Virus record (IMG/VR): IMGVR_UViG_3300025102_000038
Span: 1-54,099 of that record
Origin: a virus
Lineage: Duplodnaviria; Caudoviricetes
DNA: 54,099 nucleotides
Reading direction: 5' to 3' (one strand)
Positions within the stretch are counted from its first letter, which is position 1. Every line of letters begins with the position of its first letter. The notes below the pieces were generated by a model, which worked only from the letters and a program-made list of their open reading frames with translations, was not told the DNA's origin and searched no databases. The position numbers were made by a program, and so were the translations under genes. This document shows positions 15,684 through 41,900 of this stretch, piece by piece.

Positions 15684-15712
15684 GTTATACCATCATACAT
15701 CTTTAGTGTCAA
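15684..15712 (-). promoter_or_regulatory. sigma70-type promoter for the SSB-like gene
   Basis: minus strand TTGACA-17 nt-TATAAC with extended -10 TG. Confidence 0.7.
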
Positions 15713-17726
15713 GCCAGTTGTCACCTATTTTTGCATCTAATTTCAAAGGTACATTAAAGTCTATATCCCAACGTGTATCAATGATAGATTTCATTGAACT
15801 ATTAATACTATTTACTATGTTTAGAACATCATCCACTTCGTCAGGATGAACATCTATTACTATTGAATCATGCACAGTGTTCACTATGCAACTATTCATA
15901 TTCATGAGCATGTTATCAAAAGTCATGAGAATTAGTGGCACTATATCTGCTGTAGCAAATGCTTGCACAGGATAGTTCTTTATCTGAGTGAAGTGAGACA
16001 CAGTGCCATTGTTCTTTCTAGCGACATCAGGAAAAGCAAATGAACGACCAGACGGTATTCTTATACGACCTGTCTGTACGGCTTCATTGCCTAACTGCTT
16101 GTGCCAATCGGACACACCCTTGTACTTTCTACCAAACTGCTCGTAGTACATAGCTTCTGCTTCAGATCTGCCAAACCCTGTAGCACCATACAGAGGTGCA
16201 AAGGTGTGTGCCTTTGCTTCTTGCCTAGACGTAGGTTGCCCTGCGTTTGTGATGACCTGTGCTGTGTAGCTGTGGACATCAAAGCCTTCGCTTATCTCCT
16301 GCATTGCTACTTCGTCCTGTGATAAATAGGCAGCAGTTCTAAACTCTAGCTGTGCAAAGTCAGCTTCAAGTATCTTACCACCTTCCCATCGGGACACAAA
16401 GATCTTCTTTACAGGAAACGTACCACCTCTGGGCATGTTCTGCATGTTTGGATCTGCACCACTGAAGCGTCCTGTAGAGGTGCGATGTTGCAGTAGTCTA
16501 ACGTGTAGCTTACCGTCAGCTTTGGTGTAGGTAGATATACCCTCAACAAAACTAGAGAGATAGGTATCTAGAGCAGACAGTCTGCGAACATTCTTGAGGA
16601 ACAACTCTGCCTTGGTATTACCTGTACGCTTGGCATGATGTTCTAATATTTCTAAGTTTACTTTGTTTGTGCTGAAGCCGTTAGCACTGACCCACTTAGG
16701 ACTAGGTGGTGTAAAGCGTAACCCTGCCATCTGTGGTCTGTTCTTGTACACCCAACCTGATTCGTTACAGGTAGTACACTTGTTAGGTTTCTTGTAAGGT
16801 GTACCATCCTTTCTTACTTTGGTTATCTTACCCCGACCCTTACAAGTTGGACATGTGTTGGCTGTAACTTTATATACAACGTTTGAGTGCATATCAACTA
16901 GACCGTTGAACAATGACTTGTCCATGTATGGTTCAAAGTAATTAGCCCACATAGATTTGTCTTTTGGTTTACGGCTGTAGATAACCCACGACAACTGCTC
17001 TGGACTATTAAGATTGATAGGTCTGTCACCCATGAGATCACGAACCTGTTGGCTGAGATCATTCCATATACTCACCTTCTCCTTCTCAAACTCCTTGCGA
17101 ACCTCGTCTAGTTTCTTGGAGTCCACACTGAATCCACGTTGATATATCTTACACAAGCACACGGCAACCATGTTGGTATGTGTAACTGTATCCATAAGAT
17201 CAGCATCACCGTTGGTTAGCCTTTGATGTATCTTGTTTGATAGGTCATATGTAGCTCTGATATCGTGTAGCAGGTAGTCTGATAACTCTTGATGTGGGAT
17301 CTCAGATACAAGTATACCACGCTGAAAGTAACTCTTCATTGTATCCTGCTTTTTATTATCTAGATCGTATCGTTCAGCACATTGCTCCAAGGATAGTGGT
17401 TGCTTCTGTCCACGCTGTAGCACATACTCACCTAGCATAGTATCAAATACGACACCATCATACTTGAACCCCGACTCCCACAACCAAATCAAATCGTGAG
17501 CTACGTTATGACATACAAGCACAGTAGTTTTATCTAACTGCTCCTGCACCATAGCATGACCGTTAGGTGTAGGTGGGGCATATGCATGGTCAAACGTAAC
17601 TATTCTCTCCCAGTTATCTGTCTTCATGCCTACCATAACTAAACTATTCTCAGGCTCAAAGGGATCTAGGTGTAGCTTGTCATTACGCTTGATCACATTA
17701 TTTTCTATGTCTAATATTAATCTCAT
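15693..17726 (-). CDS. polA: family A DNA polymerase with inserted DnaJ-type zinc-finger
   Basis: 3'-5' exo DIE/HN..HD; TGRFS, DFAQLEFR, AKAHTFAPLYG, VHDS; insert CPTCKGRG...CTTCNESG. Confidence 0.95.
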   Translation of the reverse strand: MRLILDIENNVIKRNDKLHLDPFEPENSLVMVGMKTDNWERIVTFDHAYAPPTPNGHAMVQEQLDKTTVLVCHNVAHDLIWLWESGFKYDGVVFDTMLGEYVLQRGQKQPLSLEQCAERYDLDNKKQDTMKSYFQRGILVSEIPHQELSDYLLHDIRATYDLSNKIHQRLTNGDADLMDTVTHTNMVAVCLCKIYQRGFSVDSKKLDEVRKEFEKEKVSIWNDLSQQVRDLMGDRPINLNSPEQLSWVIYSRKPKDKSMWANYFEPYMDKSLFNGLVDMHSNVVYKVTANTCPTCKGRGKITKVRKDGTPYKKPNKCTTCNESGWVYKNRPQMAGLRFTPPSPKWVSANGFSTNKVNLEILEHHAKRTGNTKAELFLKNVRRLSALDTYLSSFVEGISTYTKADGKLHVRLLQHRTSTGRFSGADPNMQNMPRGGTFPVKKIFVSRWEGGKILEADFAQLEFRTAAYLSQDEVAMQEISEGFDVHSYTAQVITNAGQPTSRQEAKAHTFAPLYGATGFGRSEAEAMYYEQFGRKYKGVSDWHKQLGNEAVQTGRIRIPSGRSFAFPDVARKNNGTVSHFTQIKNYPVQAFATADIVPLILMTFDNMLMNMNSCIVNTVHDSIVIDVHPDEVDDVLNIVNSINSSMKSIIDTRWDIDFNVPLKLDAKIGDNWLDTKDV

Positions 17727-23135: not shown

Positions 23136-24136
23136 GAATATACTCCTTCTAATATGTGCGAGATCACTGCACGAGTGAAGCCATTGCCGATCATCTTGTA
23201 GCGTTGGCTGTTTGATATAGGCTTGAGTTTGTGTACCCGAAACCCCATGTGTTTATCCTGCTCGACAAACTGTCCATACTCTGTCCATCCATCAGGCAAA
23301 GTCTGTAGACGCTCACATTCTAAAGGTGTTAATGCTCTCCAATGTAGCTCGTCTGTCTCTACCTTGGGCATTCGCCATCCACCTTGCATGGTAGTCAGGG
23401 TAGGACTCTTGCCTTGCCTAGAGTACACACGCTTGATGATGTCATAGCCTTTGAGGTCAGCTTCACCGACTTGCTTACAACCTTTGTGATTGAAGACTAC
23501 TTGTCTACGAGACTTCTCAAAGTACATCTTCATGCTACCACCTTTGAAGTAGTTGGCATCAATGCAGTAGGACTTGTCTCTATCTGCCATAGCACCATCT
23601 TCTAGCACATCATTGAGTACGATGCCCATGTCAGCTAACTCGTCATGTGGTGAGTTAGTTATGTAGACACGCTTTCTCTCCTGACCTGTCACCTTGCCAC
23701 TGTTGTGAGATCGCATCTGTGCATCTGGACGTATGGCACTGATACGCTTGTACCACTCATGCTTGGCTTTGGACTCGACATTCTCAAACAGATAGAACTC
23801 TGGGTTCAAACCTTCCAATGCATCATACATAACCTCAGACAAGTCACGACTATCTGAAGTGCCAAGCTGTTTACCTGCCACGCTGTAAGGCTGACAAGGG
23901 AAACCTGCGATCAGAAGAAAGACATCTCTGCCCAACAGTTCTCGCCAACCATTGGCATCGCCATGATGTATGGCATGAGGTATGTTATGTTTGGACACAG
24001 CACTAGCATACTTGTCTGTTTCGAATGTGTGATACTCGTAGTCACCATCAGGTGATACATCAATACCTGCATCAAGGCATGAGAGGTAGGCACTGTCTGT
24101 GCCACCACACAAACTAACTACTATCTTTTTCGTCAT
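23132..24136 (-). CDS. C5 cytosine DNA methyltransferase (orphan)
   Basis: GFPCQ catalytic motif, ENV, Q.R.RVY, TP.ECERLQT, YKMIGNG. Confidence 0.9.
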   Translation of the reverse strand: MTKKIVVSLCGGTDSAYLSCLDAGIDVSPDGDYEYHTFETDKYASAVSKHNIPHAIHHGDANGWRELLGRDVFLLIAGFPCQPYSVAGKQLGTSDSRDLSEVMYDALEGLNPEFYLFENVESKAKHEWYKRISAIRPDAQMRSHNSGKVTGQERKRVYITNSPHDELADMGIVLNDVLEDGAMADRDKSYCIDANYFKGGSMKMYFEKSRRQVVFNHKGCKQVGEADLKGYDIIKRVYSRQGKSPTLTTMQGGWRMPKVETDELHWRALTPLECERLQTLPDGWTEYGQFVEQDKHMGFRVHKLKPISNSQRYKMIGNGFTRAVISHILEGVYS

Positions 24137-24302
24137 TAGCACTCTCCTTTCTTAAATCGTTTATCATGTTTACCCACTTAGACATCTCTTGCTGATGCCT
24201 AAGTTGGGCTTCTTTCTCACGTTTGTCCTGCACAATCTGCGACTTCTTACGCAGGATGTGAGGATTGCGTGGCTTCCACGCTTTGATCTTCTTGTTAGCC
24301 AT
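24114..24302 (-). CDS. small basic protein
   Basis: KPRNP motif; coupled ORF. Confidence 0.55.
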   Translation of the reverse strand: MANKKIKAWKPRNPHILRKKSQIVQDKREKEAQLRHQQEMSKWVNMINDLRKESANDEKDSS

Positions 24303-24303
24303 G

Positions 24304-25161
24304 TTAAGCCACTACCAACTGCTTGAAGGTAGGTGAGTCTACCCACTTGGCAACCTCTTGCTCTCGCTTGAACAGGGTGACTTCTCTGGTATCCTTACCA
24401 GTGTTCCTGATCTTGAAGTTGTTTCTCTCGTCACCATAGGTAGCGTAGTTGGTGAAAGCACTGTACAGTGAGAATACATTCTCACCCCTAGTATGAGACT
24501 CGTCTTTGTACAAGGAGAACATTTTCTCTGCCTTCTTCTCAGAAGGTATTATCTTGGACAAGATACTTGGCACATCAAGACTAGCAAGATTTATCTTGCC
24601 CCAAGTATTGAGCCTACCCATACGATCAGAGAAGTCTGTGTACCCATCGTATAGTCTCTTCTCCAGACCACCGATGGTAAAGTTAGAAGTGTTCTTACAC
24701 TTCGTCATGTCATACTCACCTGTGATCATACCATTGGTGCAGAAGAAGTCGATAGCACCAAAGTAAATCAGATTACCACATGTACCATCCACACCATGCA
24801 ACGCAATGATACGATAGCCTGTCTTGGTCTTGTGACCATTGTTGGTAACGATATCATAAGTCACATTAGGTAATGTGATATCCATTCGTAGCCAACCACC
24901 ACCATGAGCAGATCGGAAGGCTACAGTCATACCTTCTAGCTGTTCGGGTGTATGGTTGTCACGGACAACCTTGTAGACAGAAGAGCAGAATGCTCTGTGT
25001 CCTGCAGGGCTAAAGCCCTTGCCCATATGAGCAATGACATCGCCAGTCACAGGGTTGACCACAAACTTGTGACCTTCCATCCGTGACTTCTCGTACTGAG
25101 GTACGAAATCACAGATCTCTGGAAGTTGTTGGATTGTGTTAGGTGTAAAATCTAAAGCCAT
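24304..25161 (-). CDS. DUF932-like early protein
   Basis: H..DG....,FFCTNGM, YSAFTNYAT motifs; GAAAGGAG RBS. Confidence 0.75.
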   Translation of the reverse strand: MALDFTPNTIQQLPEICDFVPQYEKSRMEGHKFVVNPVTGDVIAHMGKGFSPAGHRAFCSSVYKVVRDNHTPEQLEGMTVAFRSAHGGGWLRMDITLPNVTYDIVTNNGHKTKTGYRIIALHGVDGTCGNLIYFGAIDFFCTNGMITGEYDMTKCKNTSNFTIGGLEKRLYDGYTDFSDRMGRLNTWGKINLASLDVPSILSKIIPSEKKAEKMFSLYKDESHTRGENVFSLYSAFTNYATYGDERNNFKIRNTGKDTREVTLFKREQEVAKWVDSPTFKQLVVA

Positions 25162-25181
25162 AATTGACTCCTTTCTCTTGG

Positions 25182-25421
25182 TTAATGATAAGTTGGCATC
25201 TCAGGATGCTGTTCATAGACATAGCCTACGTCTGGCTCTGAGTCAAGTAGATACTCTTTTACAAAGAGAAACTCTACCTTGGCATCAGGATAGCAAGACC
25301 TAGTTACGTCCAATGCGTAGTTAATTGCAGATGAACTGTCCATAATGGTGGGGTACGAGTAAGACACTCGCACCACACCCTTCTGTTCATCTACGGATAC
25401 AAAGACCTCGTAGTGGATCAT
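25182..25421 (-). CDS. hypothetical protein
   Basis: 79-aa ORF in early operon. Confidence 0.6.
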   Translation of the reverse strand: MIHYEVFVSVDEQKGVVRVSYSYPTIMDSSSAINYALDVTRSCYPDAKVEFLFVKEYLLDSEPDVGYVYEQHPEMPTYH

Positions 25422-25423
25422 TG

Positions 25424-25738
25424 TTAGGCTACCTTCTTCTGGATGAGGAAGGACTTGATTGGCACATATTGTGCCACTCTTCGCTTGCCCTTTCTATCGT
25501 AGGCATGGAAGCAAGAGTAACTCTTGCCAAAGTTCAAGCGAACCAAAGGTTCACCTGACTTGCCACCTTTACCCTTACGGATAAACCATCCTGTCTCTTG
25601 GACTTTGTCATTCCTGTAGATGACAGGCTTGTAGCCTTGTAGCTTCAGCTTGATTGCTGTAGCAATAATTTTGATGGCAGTGAAACCACCAGAGATTTTT
25701 GTGCCTTTTGGCAAGTTGTCAAAGTTAAATGTAAGCAT
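25424..25738 (-). CDS. basic hypothetical early protein
   Basis: GAAAGGAG RBS; 104 aa. Confidence 0.7.
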   Translation of the reverse strand: MLTFNFDNLPKGTKISGGFTAIKIIATAIKLKLQGYKPVIYRNDKVQETGWFIRKGKGGKSGEPLVRLNFGKSYSCFHAYDRKGKRRVAQYVPIKSFLIQKKVA

Positions 25739-25763
25739 GGTAATGCTCCTTTCTGTGTTGTGT

Positions 25764-25782
25764 CTCCCAACAATGTCGGGAA
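25764..25782. repeat. near-palindromic element copy 1 (TCCCAACAATGTCGGGA)
   Basis: five copies in the same orientation within 25.7-28.9 kb. Confidence 0.9.
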
Positions 25783-25800
25783 ACGTTGGGTTTATGTACC

Positions 25801-25847
25801 ACAGTTATATAGTACTTTCACTAAAGTTCAAGTACTATATTAACTGT
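25801..25847. promoter_or_regulatory. long hairpin with loop TCACTAAAGTTC
   Basis: stem TATAGTACTT/AAGTACTATA plus outer ACAGTTA/TAACTGT. Confidence 0.75.
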
Positions 25848-26244
25848 ATACTCTAATGAGAGGTCTTCCCTCTCTTATCATGAGCTTGACCATCGTCATG
25901 TCATTGCCCACTGTCTCACCTGTATCTTCGTAGACAAAGGTGGTGTTCTTGTATGGATTGTACGTCACATTTCTCCACGTTTTACCTGAGTAGTAGTAAT
26001 CGTCCCACTCTTCAGCCGTAAACTTGTAGGGTCTATACCCTACAGCAAAGGCATGGACATTCTTCTTGCCCTCTTCAATGACACGCTTACGTCCCCCTTG
26101 TCTTACGACAAAGCTAGGGTTGGTAAGAAATACGTCATTGGTTCGGTCAATCACACGGTTAGTCTTGTAGTCCTGTAAGGAATACATACCCTTGTGAATA
26201 TTCCAATATGCTCTTACGAATTGATCATACATAGTCACCTCCAA
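25840..26244 (-). CDS. conserved phage hypothetical protein
   Basis: YWN.HK..YS, FVVRQGGRKRV..EGKKNVHAF, VTYNPY motifs. Confidence 0.75.
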   Translation of the reverse strand: MEVTMYDQFVRAYWNIHKGMYSLQDYKTNRVIDRTNDVFLTNPSFVVRQGGRKRVIEEGKKNVHAFAVGYRPYKFTAEEWDDYYYSGKTWRNVTYNPYKNTTFVYEDTGETVGNDMTMVKLMIREGRPLIRVYS

Positions 26245-26521
26245 AAGTTATAGTTGTTTCTCTCAAGCTACTATAAGTAGCTCCTACTGGTACAATTACC
26301 TTGTGTCCTTCAGACCATAGGTGTTCACCTATAGACTTCCAAGCTTCTTCCAGATAATAGTCAAGATCTGTATAGAATATACAGAGAGGATACTGCTTAA
26401 CTTTGTTAAGCCTTGTTGTACCTTCATCATAGGCATAGATATCATATGCCCACTTCTTTGCTATATAGGACAAAGACCTACTATGATCAAGAGGTAATTC
26501 GTCTTGAAATACTATCATCAT
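26225..26521 (-). CDS. hypothetical protein
   Basis: AAGGAGTAGC-ATG junction. Confidence 0.65.
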   Translation of the reverse strand: MMIVFQDELPLDHSRSLSYIAKKWAYDIYAYDEGTTRLNKVKQYPLCIFYTDLDYYLEEAWKSIGEHLWSEGHKVIVPVGATYSSLRETTITFGGDYV

Positions 26522-26522
26522 G

Positions 26523-26663
26523 CTACTCCTTTGCGTCTATGGAATCTTCAAGAACTTGTTTAAGTTCTAGTAGAACAGCTAAAGTAAACTCATCTCTGAT
26601 GAGATACTTTACCTCATGTATTTTATTTTTCTGCACAATAATTTTATCTTCATTGTCCATCAT
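26523..26663 (-). CDS. hypothetical protein (46 aa)
   Basis: GAAAGGAGTAGC-ATG junction; MMDNEDKIIVQKNK... Confidence 0.6.
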   Translation of the reverse strand: MMDNEDKIIVQKNKIHEVKYLIRDEFTLAVLLELKQVLEDSIDAKE

Positions 26664-26664
26664 G

Positions 26665-26823
26665 CTACTCCTTTCTGCTTGAGTTTATTTCTATTTCAGT
26701 TAAAAGATACTCTTGTTCAGTTATATAAGAATAACTTTCAAGAAACTCTTCCTTCGATAGTTGATGAAAATCAACCATCTTTTCTGCATCATCAGAAAAA
26801 TCTTTGTATTCAACGTCAGTCAT
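26665..26823 (-). CDS. small acidic protein (52 aa)
   Basis: GAAAGGAG RBS; MTDVEYKDFSDDAEKMVDF...EEFLESYSYITEQEY. Confidence 0.65.
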   Translation of the reverse strand: MTDVEYKDFSDDAEKMVDFHQLSKEEFLESYSYITEQEYLLTEIEINSSRKE

Positions 26824-26904
26824 TATGCTACTCCTTTCTGACGTAGTCTAAGTTTACGGACAAGCCTTCTCTCTCTAAGAGAGTTGTGCTTATCCCTTCT
26901 GTCA

Positions 26905-26923
26905 TTCCCAACATTGTCGGGAA
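26905..26923. repeat. near-palindromic element copy 2 (TTCCCAACATTGTCGGGAA)
   Basis: identical to copy at 27754. Confidence 0.9.
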
Positions 26924-26970
26924 ACACTTTCCTCTTCTTGGAAGAGGAAGCATTCTTTTGAAAGTTAATA

Positions 26971-27732
26971 TTACTTTGTGTCATTTGCTATCTCCGATGC
27001 TTTAGCTTTTCTGTTACCATGTGCAGGGAAACCAATAATGGTTTCTCTGTGAGACATAGCACAGAGTTTACATTTAGCACAGTCCATATCGTCCCGATAT
27101 GTAGCAGGACAGACTGTGACCTTCTTCCCCTTCGGGGTCTTGATGTTCCACAGATCAACTCTTGATCTGTACTCATCATAAGTCTCTGACCAGACACCTT
27201 TCTTGACATGCTTTCTTTCGTAGAAAGATGGCATGACAGCAGTGACTGGAGCAGGTTTGTGTCCAAAGGACACAAGTTCTGCCAAGTCATCAGCATGAGA
27301 CATGCTGTTACCTGACAAGTTAATGACAAAGCTTGCTTGTTTGTTACAGACCATGACTATCAGTCTATTCATAGGATCTGACATGTCATGATGAGTATAA
27401 GTGAAGCCTTTCTTGCCACCAAGTCTACAAGCTTCTTCAAGCTTGAAGACCTTATCAGCATCAATCTCCCCATTCTTATGGGGAAGATCTCCTGCTTGAT
27501 TATGTCTCCACAAAGCTGTGGCTTTGTCCTGTACTGTCTGACAAAAGTCATCCCAGTCAAGACCAATGTCTGGAACTCTGTTCCAGTGTCCCTTCAAAGG
27601 GTAGCCATCTGCATAGCAACCCTTTCTTCTTAGAGGACAAGAGGTAGGACAAGAGTCCTCTTCAGTCGTACTGACTGAAATCTCACCAGTCTTGATATTC
27701 GATGACTTCAAAGTCAAGTGAACTTTACTCAT
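26971..27732 (-). CDS. Cys-rich early protein (Gp88-like, possible metal/Fe-S binding)
   Basis: CPTSCP....CYA, RHNQAGD, FTYTH, INLS, CPA.....C..C.LC, FPAHG. Confidence 0.7.
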   Translation of the reverse strand: MSKVHLTLKSSNIKTGEISVSTTEEDSCPTSCPLRRKGCYADGYPLKGHWNRVPDIGLDWDDFCQTVQDKATALWRHNQAGDLPHKNGEIDADKVFKLEEACRLGGKKGFTYTHHDMSDPMNRLIVMVCNKQASFVINLSGNSMSHADDLAELVSFGHKPAPVTAVMPSFYERKHVKKGVWSETYDEYRSRVDLWNIKTPKGKKVTVCPATYRDDMDCAKCKLCAMSHRETIIGFPAHGNRKAKASEIANDTK

Positions 27733-27753
27733 TTTAAACTCCGTTTAAGTTGC

Positions 27754-27772
27754 TTCCCAACATTGTCGGGAA
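27754..27772. repeat. near-palindromic element copy 3
   Basis: TTCCCAACATTGTCGGGAA, about 21 nt upstream of ATG 27732. Confidence 0.9.
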
Positions 27773-27799
27773 TGGTTTCGGTTTGGTCGGCACTAAAGT

Positions 27800-27863
27800 C
27801 TATAACACTAATAGAAATATAACACCTTCACTAAAGTTCAGGTGTTATATTTCTGTGTTATAG
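27800..27863. promoter_or_regulatory. long hairpin with loop TCACTAAAGTTC
   Basis: 15-bp stem AGAAATATAACACCT/AGGTGTTATATTTCT plus outer CTATAACAC/GTGTTATAG. Confidence 0.8.
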
Positions 27864-27886
27864 TCTAAGTCTCTTCGGCAATCAAG

Positions 27887-27967
27887 TCATAGTCTGAATC
27901 CCCCACTAAGCCAATAGCAATAAAAAAAGACTAGCATAAATGCTAGTATCAAAAGTAAACAAGTCAT
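27887..27967 (-). CDS. putative 26-aa membrane peptide
   Basis: GGAG RBS; MTCLLLILAFMLVFFYCYWLSGGFRL. Confidence 0.4.
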   Translation of the reverse strand: MTCLLLILAFMLVFFYCYWLSGGFRL

Positions 27968-28040
27968 AGTTTAATCTCCGATTAAAAGGGTTGAAACAAA
28001 AAAAAGAGCATAGCACCTTAGTGCTATACTCTTTAGGTGA

Positions 28041-28775
28041 AAGGTAGCTTACGCTACCTTCCTCTTCTTCTGAGAAACCTTTGGTTTCTCTTGTGAAGCA
28101 TGGTGCAACTCTATGAGTTGCAGTATAACCTCTTCGAGGTTAAGTTGCTTCTTAGAAGCAAGTTCAGCAGTGAACTGAGCCAAACCCTTGGGGTTTGTAG
28201 GGACTTTAACCTTGGTTAACTTCTTTACAGAAGTTACCTCATTCCCAACATTGTCGGGATTGACCTCAACCTTTGGTTGAGACTGAGAAGTCGTAGACTT
28301 CTTCTTGGAAGCCTTTGGCTTCTTCCTTGTTGAGAAGTCACCGACTTCTTCAACAAATGCTCTTTTCATCGCTGAAAGCGATGTAAAGCCAAGGGATTGT
28401 TTTCCACTAGTGAGAACTCTGTTCTCAAGCCAAGCAGTGATTTGATCATGGTTCTTATAGAACCATAATGTTTCACTTCTCCTCTGAGAAGTGAGTTTGT
28501 TCAGAGAACACTCTTCCAATCTCTGATTGGAGATCCTGCCGTATTTGCTTTCCAAGCAAAGCTCATCGATCAGCTTACCAGTTTGGTAAGCTAGTCCACC
28601 AGACTGAGTATCAGTCTTGTGAAGCTTGGAATGCTCTAACAGAAACTGAGCAGTTTCTGAAGCAATGACAGCTCCCCTAGCTTCAAAAGTACCACTGTAC
28701 TTTTGGAAAGCTTGAGGTTTCTTAGAAACCTTAGGAGCAACTTTAGTTGCTTTAGCAGAGTTGCTCTTTAGAGCA
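28041..28775. repeat. tandem array of short inverted repeats inside coding sequence
   Basis: 28 hairpins (5-9 bp stems, 2-4 nt loops) read directly from the sequence. Confidence 0.92.
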
Positions 28776-28804
28776 GTTACGAGTTTGGATTTTGTGTTTG
28801 GCAT
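28049..28804 (-). CDS. first early gene, Lys/Ser-rich protein of unknown function
   Basis: 251-aa ORF with GAAGGAGG RBS. Confidence 0.75.
   Translation of the reverse strand: MPNTKSKLVTALKSNSAKATKVAPKVSKKPQAFQKYSGTFEARGAVIASETAQFLLEHSKLHKTDTQSGGLAYQTGKLIDELCLESKYGRISNQRLEECSLNKLTSQRRSETLWFYKNHDQITAWLENRVLTSGKQSLGFTSLSAMKRAFVEEVGDFSTRKKPKASKKKSTTSQSQPKVEVNPDNVGNEVTSVKKLTKVKVPTNPKGLAQFTAELASKKQLNLEEVILQLIELHHASQEKPKVSQKKRKVA
28243..28259. repeat. near-palindromic element copy 4 (intragenic)
   Basis: TCCCAACATTGTCGGGA. Confidence 0.9.
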
Positions 28805-28878
28805 TTTGCCCTCCTTCTATTAATTGGTTAACACATTTGTAAACAAATGTTGTGTTAACCAATTACTAGGGTTGCCGA

Positions 28879-28896
28879 TCCCAACAATGTCGGGAA
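28879..28896. repeat. near-palindromic element copy 5
   Basis: TCCCAACAATGTCGGGAA upstream of first early gene. Confidence 0.9.
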
Positions 28897-28959
28897 TGGA
28901 TCATACCCCCTTGGGGTATGTTTTTGGATGACCAAAGAATGACCATAGGCTTTAGCCTA

Positions 28960-29260
28960 AACCTAATTTTTTCAGAAATCTTGACCTCAATCGACTGATT
29001 GCCTATGGCAACTGATGTGATAACAGTTGCTTTTAAAAACAAACTCGTTTGTTTTCAAGGCGATGGGCATTCCAAGGTGCATTGCGATGCACAATTTGCG
29101 TTCACCACGCATCGGGATGCACGATTTTACCTGCATCGGGCATCGGGACGCATGGGGAAGGGGGGGTGCGTCAGATATATACATATATAAATACACAGAT
29201 TAGGAAAAATGAGTGTTAACCACTTTGGTACGGATATAGACAGGGGTGTCAAATAATTGG
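28960..29260. other. strand-switch region; candidate genome terminus/packaging or origin site
   Basis: non-coding, GC-rich GCATCGGG repeats and G-run followed by AT-rich tract, between divergent arms. Confidence 0.45.
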
Positions 29261-29262
29261 TA

Positions 29263-29291
29263 TTGACTACTAAAAGCATACATGATATAAT
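29263..29291 (+). promoter_or_regulatory. sigma70-type promoter for the late arm
   Basis: TTGACT-17 nt-TATAAT. Confidence 0.75.
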
Positions 29292-29428
29292 TATATAAAC
29301 TAGGATGACATATTAAGTGTTACATTAAAATGTTTATTCAATATAAATAAATAATCACTTACATGTAACATATTAAATGTATGTCTATATAGGGATTTAT
29401 CCGTACTTTTTTAAATTAATGTTTGACA

Positions 29429-29638
29429 ATGGGAAAAAAATCCGTAAAACTATACACAGATAATGTAATTGAAGAGTTTTATTCTGCTGTGGCTAATAAC
29501 AACTTAAATAAATTACATATACCTCACAGTGATGTTTTCTACGTAAGAGCCGCAGTGGAAGCCCACTATGGCAGATCTTTTACTTTGAAAGAGGTAGAAG
29601 ACGCTATGATAGCTGAAGGTTGGTCAGACCATAAATAG
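29429..29638 (+). CDS. hypothetical protein
   Basis: first ORF of plus arm; HIPHSDVFYVR; start uncertain. Confidence 0.55.
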   Translation: MGKKSVKLYTDNVIEEFYSAVANNNLNKLHIPHSDVFYVRAAVEAHYGRSFTLKEVEDAMIAEGWSDHK

Positions 29639-29648
29639 GAGCAAAACT

Positions 29649-29942
29649 ATGGTAATGAAAAAAGATAAAATGAAGAAAAAAGGCATGGCAGTGGGAGGAC
29701 TCAAAAAACCTGCAACAGGAGCTAAAGGACTAAAGAAGTTGCCTACACCTGTACGTAATAAAATGGGCTACATGAATAAAGGTGGCACAATGAAGAAGAA
29801 GGGTATGGCTCGTGGTGGAGCTATGAAGAAAAAAGGTTACGCAAAAGGTGGAGCAATGAAAAAGTACGGCACTATGTATAAAGCAGGTGGTGCTGTGGCA
29901 GGAAAAAAGTACGGAATGATTGACAAGAAGAAGAAGAAATAG
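29649..29942 (+). CDS. Lys/Met/Gly-rich repeat protein with five xxxGG motifs
   Basis: AGGAG RBS; MKKKG[MY]AxGG repeats. Confidence 0.8.
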   Translation: MVMKKDKMKKKGMAVGGLKKPATGAKGLKKLPTPVRNKMGYMNKGGTMKKKGMARGGAMKKKGYAKGGAMKKYGTMYKAGGAVAGKKYGMIDKKKKK

Positions 29943-29957
29943 TATAATTATGTCACT

Positions 29958-30668
29958 ATGGCATATTTACAAAGTAACATTCCGTATTTCAAAGCTTGGG
30001 TAAGACGAGAGTATACCTGTAACTTTGAAAAATATTATGGCGAGTTTTTACACTGCATGGTTATAGCTGTAACAACTATGCCAAATAGGTCACTCAGCTT
30101 TCAAGTTATATTTACTGGCTGTGAGACTGACGATACTGACGAACCAAATGTGCATGGTGGAGCTATGTGGGCTAGAATGCCTATCACAGCCCTAGTAGGA
30201 GACACTCCTGTAGAAGACTGGGCTGAAGAAATGCCACCCTACATAGCACAACCTTGGGATTGTATGTCCCATGATCATAGTGTGTATGTATTAGACAGAG
30301 CTACACCTGCACCGTGGATAGCAAAAGTGGATGGAGAGTTCTATCCTGCTAAATATTACTTTACTGTGGACTACACAAACAGTGAGATAGCTGATGATCC
30401 TGCACAACATAAGCAGTCACACGTACTAGAACTGATGGATGCAGGTAAATACACAGGAAACATTGTGGCATTACCTAATAATAGAGTCAGAGTGACACAT
30501 CCTGCATGGTTTGAAGCAGGAGAAGGACCACCTGACTTTAGACCCTCCCAAAGAATCTTTCATTCAAAGCAAGAAACGGAATATGTGTGGGATACTGGAA
30601 GAGTATTCAATAACTTATATGCAAAGGAAAAGAAAAATGGCAGCAACACCAAGAAAAAAAGTAAATAA
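29958..30668 (+). CDS. conserved phage protein of unknown function
   Basis: globular 236-aa ORF with PWDC, YYFTVD, HKQSH, LPNNR motifs. Confidence 0.75.
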   Translation: MAYLQSNIPYFKAWVRREYTCNFEKYYGEFLHCMVIAVTTMPNRSLSFQVIFTGCETDDTDEPNVHGGAMWARMPITALVGDTPVEDWAEEMPPYIAQPWDCMSHDHSVYVLDRATPAPWIAKVDGEFYPAKYYFTVDYTNSEIADDPAQHKQSHVLELMDAGKYTGNIVALPNNRVRVTHPAWFEAGEGPPDFRPSQRIFHSKQETEYVWDTGRVFNNLYAKEKKNGSNTKKKSK

Positions 30669-38805: not shown

Positions 38806-38956
38806 TTATATAGGGTTCTTGATAGTACAGAATCACGCTATTATGGAGCAGACAAACGACTTAGTCACACTTCATAGATCACAAGGTGCTATCGCTATGC
38901 TAAGACGATTACGACAACTAAGGGATCATGTAAACTCCAATGGGTCTACTAAGTAA
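38711..38956 (+). CDS. small conserved protein after portal
   Basis: HRSQGAI..LRRL motif. Confidence 0.65.
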   Translation: MNNNNQNNPQINLYSKLKPLVNNKDHWDSFSDYIGFLIVQNHAIMEQTNDLVTLHRSQGAIAMLRRLRQLRDHVNSNGSTK

Positions 38957-41900
38957 AGCTGTAAAACAGGGATTAATAGACAATCCCCAAATCATTACTA
39001 AGAAACAGGATGAAGTTGCTAAAGAAGCAAAGGATAGGGCTGACTTAAATGCAAACGATCCTAACACAAATCCTGATGTGTATGATGAGCAGATGGCAGA
39101 TCCTAATGTGTCTAAGATCACAGTGCCTGAAGATCCCACTCCTATTCTTGGAAGTATGTATGGAGACTTAGTGCAAACATTTGAGTCCATGCCCTTTTAC
39201 GGAAAAGAGACAATATCAGGAGCAAACTTTGTAGAACAGTTAAATTATTATGTAAAAAATATTCAAGGCAGAAATATACCATTGTATAAATTTATGGAGA
39301 AGCGAGGAGCTTTTAAAAAATTTAGAGACAATCCCAAAAAACAATTTACAAAAAAAGAAATATTAGATTCTTTAAAAGACTTTTCTTCTTTTGAATTTAG
39401 AATAAGAGTGGATAAAGATACATTATACCGACCTCAACAAAGACTACCTATTGATGAGAGTGCAGGAGATTATAAAAAAGTAGGTTATGCTGAAGTAACT
39501 TTACATGCTCCCATAGATAATACTGTACCTTCAATACAAAAATTTGCAGACAAACACTTTAAGGGAAATACTATAGGACACACTAGATCTTCTTTTGTGT
39601 ATAACAATAAAACTAAAGAGTCGGCTGTTATGCCTGAAGAGGTACAAGGAGATCTTTTTCAAAACATTGGAAAAACAGTAGATGTTACAAGAGATAGATT
39701 AACTAACATACCTACATATGATAATTTTCAAGAGACAACTTTGGTTGGTAATCAAACAATGAGTTTAGTAGGTATTAGAGCAGATACTACACTAACTAGA
39801 TCTGAATCCCCTAGTTGGTTTGCTACTTCATTTATAGCACCTACTCGATCTTATAACAACCTAAAAGAAAATTTAAGGCTTGAATATTTTCTTATGGAAG
39901 ATAATGCAATGCTACTTAATAGGATAAAAGAAGGTAGAGTTCCACTAAATGAAGAAGTTGCTAATGCCATAGGAAGAGATAAAGGTATAATGAACATTGG
40001 CTCTCCAGATGCAACAAGCAGGATGGATGAAAACAAAAGTAGATTTATATCACAATTATTTGCTAAAGGTTTTTCACCAAAACAAATTAGAGAAAGGCTA
40101 GAAAAATATTTTTCTAAATCTAGTTCTGAACTAAAAGGTGAAAGTTTAACTGAAAGACAGATACAATCATTTTTAAGAAAAGAGAAACAAAATAAAATAG
40201 ACCATTATAAAGAAGTATTTAATAAAAATTTTATTGGTATTGGAGAGGAAGCTCAAGATATTAGTGGTGGCACTATAACTGCATTTAGTGAGTTACCTAG
40301 ATTAGGTGCATTAATAGATAAATTAGAAAAAAATTATGCAACAGGTTCGGCTGAAAGACAACCTTTTTTTACATTGCGATATATGCAAAGTTCTCTTTAT
40401 GAAACTCTAAGAAATTTAGAACTTGGAGAATCATTTGACGATATAACGGATTTTTCTCAATTTAAAAGTTACGAAAAACTAAGAAAGTTAAATGCACAAA
40501 AATTAAAAGATATTCAAAACACTATGCCTAGAACAATGGTATCTGGTTATGACTATAGAAATCCTAGTGCGATACCTGTATTTATGCAACGTTTTGCTGC
40601 TCATGGTTTTAACATGACAGAGAGAACAGATATGATTAATAGTATTCTTTCTAAATATAATTTAAATTATTTTAGAGGTGCAAATATAAGAAAGGGTCAT
40701 CAAGACGGACAGGTAAATGATGGTGAGAGAGATAGATTTTTAACTGATGGTTCTACTAATTATGCAGGGCAAATAAAATATCCTGATGGTTCTATTAAAA
40801 CTTATATGAATGCCAATGAAAGATTTTTAAGATATTTTGATGAAATAAATGAAGATAGACAAATAGGAGCTTCTACTTGGTCTGACCACCATCCTGAATA
40901 TCAAGAGCATTTAATTCAAGAAGAATTTAAGTTACCTGATTTTGAAGATGCATATCCAAACATATCACAACCTTTACCTTACAATTTTGAAGACACTAAA
41001 AAAAGAATGAAAAAAATTGTTGACGATTTAAATGAACAATACAAAGCTATAAATGAAGCCAGACAAGAGTTTAGCAAAAATTATATGAAAGCTTTTGAAG
41101 AGGATAATTTACATAATATACCAGTAGATCCTTTTGGAGATGCAGGTCCTTTTTCTTATACCCGACTCACAAATGTTACTATGTGGAGAGAGACTAAAAA
41201 TAAAGCAGTAGTAGGAAAAGATGCAGGTGACTATGGACGTTACTATGATGATACAATTAGTCCTCCACAAAAAGAAGTTATATCTACTGACTATGAACAA
41301 AATTTTATAGATAATCAAAATGCTGTTACACAGGAACGAGATGCTTACAATAGAAAAGAAGATGAAATTACAGATTTAGAAAATGATCCACGATTGAATG
41401 ACCCATCTGGTGATGATGGTCTTTCTGAACAACTAGACGAGTTATACAATGATCTATCCGATATAGCACTAGATATAGATAAGGCAGAAGAAAGAATGTT
41501 AAGAGATTTAACAGCAAAAAATATAGGCAATTTTGCTACACTCTTTGACCCTTTTGAACATGTATTTGATCCGAAACAAATAAATGAACTAAAGTTAATT
41601 GACTTTGATGAAATAGTAGATGACTATGGAACAGAAAAAGATCCTAGATTTGGTGCAAGCTTTGTTGCTCATGTAATGCGTGAAGTTACAAAACAAGATT
41701 ATTTAAATGGTTTAAATGATTTTGGTTATACTGTGTTTAGTGAGCTAGATATGAATAGATTAAAAAATACTCTTAGTAGTGTCGAAGCCAGAAAAACTTC
41801 TATGGAATCATATCAAAGATTAGAGGATCTGTCATATAACCCATTAAAGAAAGATGACTATATTACAAAAGGTTTAAACAGGGTTGTAGAAAAAGATGAT

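Follow-up and report, generated by a model that had tools for sequence, protein, structure and literature searches.

What is the function of a 17-nt palindrome that is repeated in a single orientation among the early genes of a marine podovirus, and does it act as DNA or as RNA? The DNA analysed here (the window, 54,099 nt) is the whole virus record and a complete 54-kb HMO-2011-type podovirus. A reading of the sequence alone (hereafter the sequence-only reading) had reported five same-orientation copies in the early region, and an exact scan of all 54,099 nt bore this out: TCCCAACAWTGTCGGGA has five exact plus-strand matches (25765-25781, 26906-26922, 27755-27771, 28243-28259, and 28879-28895), spanning 3.1 kb, while 100 dinucleotide-preserving shuffles contained none. 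With up to one mismatch, the full record has five forward and no reverse matches; with up to two, the only extra matches are the same five sites on the opposite strand, with two mismatches each.

Five hairpin copies and their neighbourhood

The copies and the two reading frames that hold copies are as follows.

28879-28895, minus strand: hairpin copy 5, the first copy, ending 74 nt before the gene 1 ATG (28804)
28049-28804, minus strand: gene 1 (251 aa), an orphan and the first leftward gene
28243-28259, minus strand: hairpin copy 4, within gene 1 in the interdomain linker, about 190 nt before the stop
27755-27771, minus strand: hairpin copy 3, ending 22 nt before the ATG (27732) of a DUF7227 gene
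26823-26984, minus strand: conserved 53-codon Arg/Lys-rich ORF holding copy 2, missed by the sequence-only reading
26906-26922, minus strand: hairpin copy 2, within the 53-codon ORF, ending 82 nt before the ATG at 26823
25765-25781, minus strand: hairpin copy 1, ending 26 nt before the ATG (25738) of a 104-aa gene

One copy does lie inside the first gene, as had been described, but because copy 2 lies in the 53-codon ORF the intragenic copies are two of the five and not one. Both are in the same reading frame and encode P-D-N-V-G. These two conserved positions are in coding sequence, where ribosomes would melt a hairpin, which speaks against a leader role.

The palindrome has a single asymmetry, and the earlier description of it is correct for all five copies: it is an A.C mismatch on the plus strand and a G.T pair on the minus (gene) strand. 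RNA folding of the five copies gave -9.7 to -14.1 kcal/mol for the minus strand versus -5.8 to -8.7 for the plus-strand version. The values for copy 5, whose gene-strand sequence is UCCCGAC-AUU-GUUGGGA, are -11.0 and -8.7 kcal/mol, and in copy 1 flanking bases lengthen the stem to 10 pairs (-14.1 kcal/mol, z -4.17).

Further elements surround the copies.

28902-28920, minus strand: G+C-rich hairpin, CATACCCCAAGGGGGTATG on the gene strand, 6 nt upstream of copy 5
28822-28864, minus strand: 43-nt near-perfect palindrome between copy 5 and the gene 1 ribosome-binding site
28265-28281, minus strand: small hairpin CTCAACC-AAA-GGTTGAG, read from the sequence, 5 nt upstream of copy 4
28003-28034, minus strand: strong intrinsic-terminator-like hairpin directly after gene 1, 14 pairs followed by TTTTTGTTT
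27817-27851, minus strand: companion element D8, a hairpin about 45 nt upstream of copy 3
26928-26950, minus strand: hairpin CTTCCTCTTC-CAA-GAAGAGGAAG, 5 nt upstream of copy 2
25807-25841, minus strand: second D8 element, about 25 nt upstream of copy 1, with TTGAAC-16-TATAAC (9/12)

D8 has a conserved 14-nt loop (TGAACTTTAGTGAA) on a variable, covarying stem, and a promoter-like TTGATT-17-TATAAC (hexamers read by eye) lies just upstream of the element at 27817-27851. An ATACCCC block precedes the first copy in four of five aligned sequences and in several further lineages; the fifth aligned sequence has ATATCCCC in its place, and its first copy is inverted and imperfect.

Versions of the repeat in related phages

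In relatives the system is conserved, though not its sequence. Each lineage has its own small palindrome, present as 5-11 gene-strand repeats at the start of the early operon, with several copies at orthologous places. The pattern is also found in the cultured phages HMO-2011, CRP-1, and CRP-345. HMO-2011 has five copies within 3.3 kb and a 55-kb relative genome has 11 within 9 kb; four of the five copies of CRP-1 lie within about 2.5 kb of the record ends (the remaining one at about 7 kb), as do four of the six of CRP-345 (the others at about 7 kb and 14.5 kb). Orthologous sites with a concerted, lineage-specific sequence precede the 104-aa gene and the DUF7227 gene; others are in the gene 1 linker, where relatives have their own motif version at the site of copy 4, and in the 53-codon ORF, whose homologues carry the motif of their lineage in frame.

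Three stem positions have different Watson-Crick pairs between lineages (covariation), the stem base TCC/GGA is kept in most lineages, and among 16 representative tabulated copies from two lineages all stem mismatches are G.T or T.G on the gene strand. The centre is far freer. In the TCCGA lineage AG, TG, TTG, TGG, CTG, CAA, and CAGT occur within single genomes and at orthologous sites, loop length as well as loop sequence varies (2-4 nt) within genomes of one sister lineage, and HMO-2011 has ACAG four times and CTGT once. Sister lineages supply the argument from loop length, since in the lineage of the window itself the spacer is of constant length.

The counts support a tie of the copies to ribosome-binding sites and not to promoters. 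A Shine-Dalgarno-like sequence with a start codon was found at most 40 nt away for 66 of 108 copies (mode 19-21 nt), compared with 1254 of 5700 random positions in the same regions (22%); the other 42 copies, about four in ten, have no adjoining start codon. Copy 3 lies 10 nt before the GGAG in the DUF7227 ribosome-binding site, and one relative has its hairpin directly against the ribosome-binding site. The distance to a good sigma-70-like promoter upstream, where one is seen, ranges between 18 and 58 nt. Relatives have host-type consensus promoters in this region, and none of the rightward consensus promoters of the window has a copy. In several sister lineages the first copy is located upstream of the sole strong sigma-70-like promoter seen there, and it may therefore escape transcription unless a weaker promoter lies further upstream. 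The earlier idea that the sequence favours a strand-specific hairpin on the minus strand gains from the folding energies, the stem covariation, the loop-length variation in the sister lineage, and the tie to ribosome-binding sites.

Gene 1, cassette junctions, and the search for a reader

The gene 1 product, for which neither a fold nor a family could be assigned, has a helical N-terminal domain, a low-complexity linker with copy 4, and a short C-terminal domain of two helices. Among four relatives sharing one motif, gene 1 identity is 26-47% upstream of the internal copy and 79-100% downstream. This low identity of the N-terminal domain among phages with the same motif argues against the suggestion that the 251-aa product is the cognate factor. 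That the 53-codon ORF is coding is shown by synonymous differences between it and its relatives (codons compared by eye).

Similarity breakpoints fall within 30 nt of a copy in 38 of 136 cases versus 13.7 expected, counts that take in closely related loci and are not independent events. Within 15 nt they are barely enriched (12 versus 8.1 expected), and most fall at the next start codon, 18-30 nt downstream of the hairpin itself. In one close relative, two copies with identical leaders enclose an additional gene. As the same short sequence stands at many gene starts, it would also provide a junction for the exchange of gene cassettes and domains, and the hairpin is best read as also marking cassette junctions.

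For the cognate factor, no protein matched an RNA polymerase or sigma family even at permissive thresholds, and no repressor was found, with no helix-turn-helix or other DNA-binding family in any early protein; the sequence-only reading had likewise found no polymerase or obvious repressor gene. The search identified no candidate RNA-binding protein or nuclease and detected no Cas6-like or RAYT-like protein. T7-like replication genes are present, as are a tyrosine integrase, which four of five relatives tested also have, and in the virion block two giant orphan proteins (1592 and 1336 aa) with no assigned function. The DxDxD motif is absent from the 1592-aa protein.

Possible roles and comparison with known systems

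At close to an even chance, we tentatively favour the motif as an RNA leader hairpin of early genes that acts after transcription. The region would be transcribed leftward as drawn, and the active form would be RNA and not DNA: a 3-nt loop on a stem of 7-10 pairs, one of them G.U, forming in early leftward mRNA. In a system that would be common to one branch of the HMO-2011-type phages, most early cistrons would open with a cassette, downstream of host-type promoters, of a strong G+C hairpin, a leader of about 10 nt, a ribosome-binding site, and ATG. Each genome has one stem for all its copies; lineages differ in it by paired changes and keep the UCC...GGA base. The hairpin may act in cis and post-transcriptionally at the 5' boundary of early cistrons, marking where early polycistronic RNA is processed and/or protected, or where translation is gated. 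The stem-loop is probably read by a lineage-specific factor, which would be phage-encoded and would recognise the stem and not the loop. Taken singly, processing or protection is a minority possibility, a purely structural hairpin without a specific reader is rather unlikely, and translational gating is improbable.

The sequence-only reading had offered a dimer operator, a phage-specific promoter, and a boxB-like or processing site. The RNA site is kept, with processing still in play, although free loops misfit a boxB-type site read through its loop; the other two are weakened, the operator by the 2-4 nt spacer variation. Duplex-DNA operator, recombination site, and hairpin promoter are all weaker than the RNA stem-loop. 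As an operator, the palindrome would be bound by a phage-encoded dimeric regulator, serving as an early-gene shut-off or as a lysogeny repressor, and RNA polymerase would be blocked at or just after early promoters, as with L5 stoperators or the unexplained Cluster O 7-3-7 repeats. Near-perfect dyad symmetry, identical copies per genome, and lineage-specific sequence are as in repressor-operator pairs, copies in coding sequence or upstream of a promoter pose no problem for a DNA site, and both orientations of the centre are found in HMO-2011 and in the TTCCGA lineage. Palindromic identical copies that also fit a duplex-DNA dimer site count against the RNA reading. The integrase leads one to expect a repressor, but none was recognised and the early proteins lack a DNA-binding family. 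Dimers rarely tolerate spacers that differ (2, 3, or 4 bp) between the copies of a genome and at orthologous sites, the asymmetry is a gene-strand G.T wobble and not a random mismatch, the set distance is kept to the ribosome-binding site and not to the promoter, and the rightward consensus promoters lack a copy, all of which leaves an operator unlikely. We give a low probability to the hairpin being a crossover point for cassette exchange, with a secondary effect on expression, working through short homology or site-specifically, possibly as a single-strand hairpin on which the tyrosine integrase of the phage acts, much as with integron attC sites. The mosaic boundary at the copy within gene 1, the breakpoint excess within 30 nt, the bracketed extra gene, the limitation of copies to the variable early region, and the integrase in the window and its relatives would all fit, and folded attC sites have a comparable strand-specific imperfection. 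The position of most breakpoints at the next start codon and the weak enrichment within 15 nt do not, 13-17 bp with a centre of 1-4 nt is less than a usual tyrosine-recombinase core, phages commonly have mosaic joints at gene boundaries without a special site, and the set distance to ribosome-binding sites would be left unexplained.

A phage-specific promoter, either duplex or an extruded single-stranded hairpin as in coliphage N4, is very improbable, since the polymerase or sigma factor that it calls for was not found, even at permissive thresholds. One of the giant orphan virion-block proteins could be the polymerase or specificity factor, the replication genes are T7-like, and the lineage-specific identical copies resemble the promoter-polymerase co-evolution of the T7 group; the 1592-aa protein, however, lacks DxDxD. 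N4 early promoters likewise have 5-7 bp stems and 3-nt loops in few copies of one orientation upstream of the earliest genes. They need a virion RNA polymerase and a template-strand hairpin with conserved loop bases, whereas here it is the non-template (RNA-like) strand that forms the better hairpin, the template strand having the A.C mismatch, and in a sister lineage neither the sequence nor the length of the loop is fixed. Hairpins very close to, or in one relative abutting, the ribosome-binding site leave little room for a start site, and relatives have host-type promoters in the region. There is a slim chance of antitermination of the lambda nut type, with D8 as the boxA part, the lineage-specific hairpin as the boxB part, and gene 1 or the small Arg-rich ORF as an N-like protein by which polymerase would read through the terminator that follows gene 1. 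The order of upstream hairpin, fast-evolving first gene, strong terminator (28034-28003), and further genes is that expected, a conserved element stands beside a phage-specific early-leader hairpin, and a copy always accompanies the small basic ORF. Lambda nut sites (boxA and boxB, with N protein) number two per genome, are read through the loop, and work only in untranslated RNA, whereas here 5-11 sites have free loops and two are inside translated sequence; moreover, the gene 1 N-terminal domain does not track motif type, and no family or fold match was found.

For the favoured RNA hairpin, an analogy, though one of logic alone, is offered by REP elements and by CRISPR repeats, whose hairpins are read by Cas6/Csy4-type endoribonucleases. 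These too are short hairpins, identical per genome and lineage-specific, which are recognised through the stem and serve to cut or stabilise parts of a long transcript; their Cas6-like or RAYT-like partners were, as noted, not detected here. The Start-Associated Sequences of Cluster K mycobacteriophages are not hairpins and occupy the start site itself. The PeSL (promoter-early stem-loop) cassettes of T4-type phages were reportedly presented by Arbiol et al. in 2010. In the parts of Comeau et al. (2014, PMC4122927) drawn on here, PeSLs are composite terminator/promoter motifs. Like the present repeat, they are short conserved stem-loop regulatory repeats between early genes of variable regions and exchange points between otherwise unrelated genes (PMC4122927). 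Unlike them, the conserved unit here is a 13-19 nt hairpin alone, in some lineages with leader and ribosome-binding site, without a conserved promoter and at a varying distance from one; lineage-by-lineage stem covariation is not in those parts of the PeSL description.

Cluster O mycobacteriophages have a 17-bp 7-3-7 repeat with invariant arms, a variable centre, and unknown function, and the parts of the account drawn on here (Cresawn et al., 2015, PMC4351075) give more than 30 repeats, genome-wide, not closely linked to translation starts and of no meaningful orientation. The likeness lies in 7-bp inverted repeats around 3 bp, in many copies per genome, some in coding sequence (PMC4351075); the differences are that the present system has 5-11 copies at the early operon start only, mostly about 20 nt before start codons, and a strand-specific G.T pair. 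From the same parts of that source, Cluster A stoperators (e.g., of L5) are asymmetric, not palindromic, and silence the prophage via a known repressor, and Cluster K Start-Associated Sequences are tied to translation starts (PMC4351075). Both resemble the present repeat in being numerous, short, identical, and lineage-specific, and in lying near gene starts in the direction of transcription, whereas the repeat here is palindromic and without a known repressor.

Since related phages, three of them cultured, have their own hairpin versions at the same places, this looks like an undescribed candidate signal for early-gene control, carried by a very abundant group of ocean phages.

Hairpin copies and the genome that carries them

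The five exact, same-strand copies described in the sequence-only reading were all recovered, and a motif scan found them to be the only near matches within the 54,099 bases of the genome, while 0 of 100 shuffles gave a match. The five-copy feature is real and non-random. The copies are as follows, gene 1 being the first early gene, with an orphan product of 251 aa.

25765-25781, minus strand: copy 1
26906-26922, minus strand: copy 2, inside a small basic ORF (26823-26984)
27755-27771, minus strand: copy 3
28243-28259, minus strand: copy 4, in the linker of gene 1 (28049-28804)
28879-28895, minus strand: copy 5, upstream of gene 1

On the gene strand, which is the minus strand here, the motif reads TCCCGAC-AWT-GTTGGGA and forms a 7-pair stem, including one G.T pair, with a 3-nt loop; the stem is often lengthened to 8-10 pairs by flanking bases. 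The strand-specific hairpin proposed for the minus strand was borne out by RNA folding, with -9.7 to -14.1 kcal/mol on the gene strand versus -5.8 to -8.7 kcal/mol on the opposite strand, which has an A.C mismatch and folded no better than shuffles in three of the five copies. Four copies had been placed before early start codons and one inside the first gene; three do precede start codons (at distances of 74, 22 and 26 nt), and two are intragenic, not one, being located in the gene 1 linker and in the small ORF of 53 Arg/Lys-rich codons, both framed as P-D-N-V-G. This ORF is kept in relatives with synonymous differences. All five copies are confined to 3.1 kb with uniform orientation relative to transcription (5/5), and the sequence upstream of them has no conservation. 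A Rfam scan of 24000-30500 gave two matches, both well under gathering scores and neither on a copy. An internal translation start after copy 4 was dropped, because the window has no start codon at a suitable distance.

The window is an entire IMG/VR virus record, rated complete by CheckV. Minus-strand genes, including small orphan genes, run from 28804 to ~10300, and the plus strand carries lysis, packaging and virion genes with a portal and an adaptor of SU10 type. Principal gene products are the following.

28804 to ~10300, minus strand: C5-cytosine methylase, cell-wall hydrolase and tyrosine integrase, by family matches
Within 28804 to ~10300, minus strand: class II ribonucleotide reductase
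Minus strand: T7-like replication set of primase, DnaB-like helicase, family A DNA polymerase (15693-17726), Cas4-like exonuclease and endonuclease I
38940-43718 and 6321-10331, plus strand: two giant proteins of the virion gene block, of 1592 and 1336 aa, respectively

The DNA polymerase shares 65.5% identity with its counterpart in Puniceispirillum phage HMO-2011 and 63% with the counterparts in Roseobacter phages CRP-1 and CRP-345. A weak match to the DnaJ CXXCXGXG zinc finger (E 0.00012, below the Pfam cut-off) lies between its exonuclease and polymerase domains, and the HMO-2011 polymerase is annotated with the same insertion. Because of the polymerase identity and the shared DnaJ insertion, the window is classed as an HMO-2011-type podovirus. 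A search of cultured phages for DNA near-identical to 24000-30000 gave zero matches.

In agreement with the sequence-only reading, which had reported no RNA polymerase or obvious repressor gene, comparison of the 57 proteins with Pfam and PHROGs, in which large orphan proteins were scanned at permissive thresholds (E up to 1-5), gave no RNA polymerase, sigma factor or recognisable DNA-binding regulator. The two giant proteins had zero Pfam, PHROG and Atlas matches, and in the 1592-aa protein, for which Atlas gave nothing usable, the DxDxD motif is absent; both are probably internal or ejection proteins. A 97-aa protein (29649-29942) is built mostly from KKKG(M/Y)A-GG repeats, and a similar KKGGLA repeat (45650-45745) is found at the C-terminus of a 674-aa protein.

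Lineage versions of the hairpin and its surroundings

The exact motif is present in multiple copies in seven IMG/VR contigs, which are close relatives with near-identical flanks and therefore give little independent information; gene replacements and one inserted gene adjoin copies among them. Distant relatives were collected via the neighbouring L5-gp82-like gene, and in 26 of the resulting 29 loci the window motif was missing as a repeat (up to 4 mismatches). In many of these 26 loci, a different small palindrome is repeated on the gene strand of the same region, and we name the lineages by their own versions (e.g. the TCCGA lineage). On the gene strand the versions read as follows.

CCCG-ATGT-CGGG; GTCCGA-TTG-TCGGAC; TTCCGA-TTG-TCGGAA
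TCCTA-AGT-TAGGA; TGTCCCA-AGT-TGGGACA
GTTACCT-AGT-AGGTAAC; TGTCAA-NNN-TTGACA

Cultured phages also have such versions. HMO-2011 carries GTCCG-NNNN-CGGAC five times within 3.3 kb spanning the start of its circular record, and GTCCAA-NN-TTGGAC occurs five times in CRP-1 and six times in CRP-345. In both CRP phages, four copies fall within ~2.5 kb of the ends of the record; the remainder are found at ~7 kb and, for CRP-345, also at 14.5 kb. The 11 copies of a complete 55-kb relative are all inside 9 kb, with the central base identical on one strand. Orthologous positions recur across lineages, namely upstream of the 104-aa and DUF7227 genes, within the linker of gene 1 and within the small basic ORF, where the encoded peptide is PDNVG, PDVG or SNVG, following the lineage motif.

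Zero repeated palindromes (5-bp arms, at least 3 copies) were found in the early regions of HTVC033P, CRP-3, CRP-603 and CRP-207, which are also without the whole early gene set of the window, and nine of ten further fetched loci, some with little upstream sequence, likewise had none. When wobble-pair variants (TCCCRACAWTGTYGGGA) were searched in the virus collection, all 22 new loci were single-copy in unrelated contigs, and a multi-copy G-C or A-T sister family was not found among them. A prophage scan of 185,579 species genomes gave 88 stretches, a number at or below chance for 596 Gb by our own arithmetic; the 80 listed are single matches in scattered taxa, none multi-copy, and no host or lysogen was found in these genomes. 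Judged from these comparisons, the feature is maintained as a system in one branch of an abundant group of marine phages, and the motif sequence itself is lineage-specific.

Stems were compared in a centre-anchored table of representative copies, gaps in the MAFFT alignment having broken the register. The same stem positions show different Watson-Crick pairs between lineages, the stem base TCC...GGA is retained in most lineages, and stem-internal mismatches are all G.T or T.G on the gene strand. The centre is AG, TG, TTG, TGG, CTG, CAA or CAGT within single genomes of the TCCGA lineage, and in HMO-2011 it is CTGT once and ACAG four times.

When all lineages are pooled, with close relatives counted too, 66 of 108 copies are followed within 40 nt by a Shine-Dalgarno-like sequence plus a start codon, the commonest distance being 19-21 nt, versus 1254 of 5700 random positions (22%) in the same regions. 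The -10 element is 18-58 nt from the hairpin where a good sigma-70-like promoter is seen upstream. Since start distances cluster and promoter distances vary, the hairpin is positioned relative to the ribosome-binding site, not to the promoter.

Other elements of the early region, including a companion hairpin (D8), are as follows.

25807-25841 and 27817-27851, minus strand: D8, inverted repeats of differing sequence around the conserved 14-nt centre TGAACTTTAGTGAA
28003-28034, minus strand: strong terminator-like hairpin immediately behind gene 1
28822-28864: 43-nt near-perfect palindrome between copy 5 and the ribosome-binding site of gene 1
~29030-29005: conserved hairpin AACTGTTAT..CAGTT, also in HMO-2011
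~29225-29180: conserved block GTGGTTAACA...TTTTCCTAATCTGTGTATTT, also in HMO-2011
29263-29291, plus strand: sigma-70-type promoter TTGACT-17-TATAAT with upstream TG, near-consensus and kept in relatives
29920-29948, plus strand: consensus sigma-70-type promoter TTGACA-17-TATAAT

D8 stems covary, with compensatory stem change in close relatives, and versions of D8 are present in HMO-2011, CRP-1, CRP-345 and other lineages. D8 often precedes the lineage hairpin or gene 1, and in several cases it directly follows a -10-like hexamer and stands 25-45 nt before the lineage hairpin. This suggests an order of promoter, D8, hairpin and ribosome-binding site, in which D8 could be a 5'-terminal leader hairpin or a promoter part. 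Both plus-strand promoters face the lysis, packaging and virion genes, and the one at 29263-29291 is back to back with a conserved leftward TTGACA, which lies ~350 nt upstream of copy 5 without a good -10 element. The window has no convincing leftward promoter upstream of copy 5, and promoter-like matches in the region are no commoner than in shuffles. The palindrome at 28822-28864 is kept in close relatives, and distant lineages have other hairpins there.

Non-coding blocks in the divergent intergenic region (~29000-29260) are kept across lineages with different motifs, raising the question of an origin, leader RNA or attachment site. A 26-codon hydrophobic ORF (27967-27887) comes next after the terminator-like hairpin, where relatives have a small membrane-protein gene. 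A recurring junction, AAAGGAGTAGCATnATG, joins a gene stop to the next start (26498-26532, 26803-26837 and other junctions), and because of it several early proteins end in K-(G/K/V)-V-A.

Copies also lie close to places where similarity between relatives ends. Among four CCCG-ATGT-CGGG relatives, identity in gene 1 rises from 26-47% ahead of its internal copy to 79-100% beyond it. Pairwise comparison inside three lineages placed 38 of 136 similarity ends within 30 nt of a copy (13.7 expected), counted as non-independent events; the excess within 15 nt is slight (12 observed, 8.1 expected). Most near-copy ends are just downstream of the hairpin, at the next start codon. Hairpin and leader thus form conserved islands between exchangeable genes, and the hairpin is best read as a mark of cassette junctions as well.

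Possible functions of the hairpin

We tentatively read the motif as an RNA hairpin in the leaders of early genes, specific to each lineage, with somewhat less than even confidence. Counting against this are the roughly four in ten copies without an adjacent start codon, the two conserved copies in translated sequence, several sister lineages in which the first copy is upstream of the only strong promoter-like site, and the negative search of the window for a convincing leftward promoter ahead of copy 5. Because of these points, an operator on duplex DNA is a serious rival, unlikely as we judge it to be. Spacing suitable for a dimer is fixed at 3 bp in the window lineage, whereas the homologous system of the TCCGA lineage has spacers of 2-4 bp, which differ at orthologous intergenic sites of close relatives; a variable centre is tolerated by a hairpin and usually not by a duplex-bound dimer. 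The early proteins, among which orphans remain, matched no DNA-binding family. A recombination site, to which the similarity ends near copies would be relevant, is quite improbable. The integron attC site is an imperfect inverted repeat of ~60-140 nt with paired R/L boxes and extrahelical bases, served by an IntI-type integrase; the present element has only 13-19 nt, and the integrase matches the general phage integrase family only.

The sequence-only reading had also offered a phage-specific promoter and a boxB-like antitermination site, and both are weakened. In a promoter of N4 type, the template strand forms the hairpin, and its 3-nt loop has conserved bases. The window has a 3-nt loop; its template (plus) strand has the A.C mismatch and the weaker fold, sister-lineage loops vary in sequence and length, and no RNA polymerase family was matched in the 57 proteins by Pfam or PHROGs, at the level of family matches. 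We regard such a promoter as highly improbable. A nut-like antitermination site would agree with a hairpin in gene-strand RNA; lambda-type boxB is read through its loop, in an untranslated leader and in few copies, whereas the loops here are free, two of the five copies are coding and there are 5-11 copies per genome, making this reading very unlikely.

Other classes were rejected. No copy (0/5) has the T run of an intrinsic terminator on the gene strand, and none was listed by the terminator scan. In an unrelated A+T-rich phage family (loci L008, L013, L058, L062, L067, L069, L072, L074, L077 and L079 of other virus contigs), the same 17-mer followed by TTTTTTATTTTT is an intrinsic terminator, and its fifth pair is G-C, A-T or G.T depending on the contig, as a textbook wobble intermediate. 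RNase III sites of the T7 early type need about two turns of double-stranded RNA, and the stems have 7-10 pairs. L5-type stoperators share the uniform orientation (5/5 in the window); they are asymmetric, genome-wide and bound by a known repressor, whereas the present sites are palindromic and within 3.1 kb only, with no repressor recognised. A T7-primase-type GTC site is inconsistent in strand between lineages.

In format, the nearest counterpart is the 17-bp 7-3-7 repeat of Cluster O mycobacteriophages, itself of unknown function; as far as the consulted part of that source describes it, it differs in copy number, distribution and start-codon link (PMC4351075). In behaviour, the hairpin most resembles the PeSL cassette of T4-type phages, described in the consulted part of its source as a conserved island between exchangeable genes (PMC4122927). 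The hairpin likewise lies at boundaries of gene insertion, deletion and replacement between close relatives. As a conserved unit of promoter and stem-loop, PeSL does not fit, since the upstream sequence is unconserved and the promoter-hairpin distance ranges over 18-58 nt.

A putative reader and early-gene control

Stems are identical at 5-11 sites per genome, and those at orthologous sites have changed together in sister lineages, even under reading-frame constraint. A phage-encoded reader is favoured by these concerted stems, because a purely structural hairpin would drift site by site. The same pattern is known from promoters of T7-group phages, stoperators, nut sites and CRISPR repeats, each co-evolving with a reader that the genome itself encodes. 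We therefore put the existence of a phage-encoded factor at better than even.

Candidates were examined among the neighbouring genes, and none was identified as the reader. The methylase, the gp82-like protein and, in most relatives, the 104-aa protein were rejected as reader, being 81-94% identical between two motif types; the same conservation of the methylase excluded the motif as a methyltransferase target. The DUF7227 protein was rejected since its allele fails to track the motif. The gene 1 product, earlier named as a candidate cognate factor, lost favour for its N-terminal domain, which is only 26-47% identical among four relatives sharing one motif and in another lineage groups differently from the outer stem pair. 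Two parts do follow the motif, the short gene 1 C-terminal domain and the small basic ORF; a copy is physically joined to each, so that linkage accounts for the association no less well than function. Atlas look-alikes of gene 1 are unnamed viral clusters, the best named being DUF3102 (score 0.89, a lead only). A PDB sequence search with the protein and a 16-member profile gave nothing under E 0.1, and a Pfam scan of all 16 family members gave nothing meaningful. The AlphaFold model is of low confidence (mean pLDDT 58.6), and Foldseek against PDB gave zero matches at E up to 0.001, with generic helical bundles only.

A possible though rather doubtful reading is that one branch of the HMO-2011-type phages, which rank with the most abundant in the sea, runs its early genes by a private hairpin code, in which a phage protein that has so far escaped recognition would read the stem of the leader hairpin. 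Such a reader might cut and protect, or gate translation, as Cas6 reads the CRISPR repeat, and joint evolution with its sites would have given at least nine specificities; the sites would serve as standard connectors for exchanging early genes and even protein domains. The first candidates would be the small Arg-rich ORF and the gene 1 C-terminal domain, which bears a copy in some lineages.

HMO-2011-type phages are described, in the consulted part of PMC9038755, as a dominant and widely distributed marine viral group. The texts searched say nothing on how these phages regulate their genes: promoters, palindromes, stem-loops and hairpins are unmentioned in the main texts of PMC9038755 and PMC6918029. 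Literature searches pairing HMO-2011 with regulatory terms turned up no such repeats, and articles on HMO-2011 and promoters do not deal with the subject, judging by their titles and abstract openings. A conserved, lineage-specific signal where the early operon begins provides a handle on early-gene timing in phages where no RNA polymerase is found, and the hairpin system also bears on the shuffling of accessory early genes. Because the system is present in cultured HMO-2011, CRP-1 and CRP-345, the question is open to direct laboratory testing. Should there be a factor that reads the stem, its several natural specificities would constitute a set of orthogonal hairpin-protein pairs.
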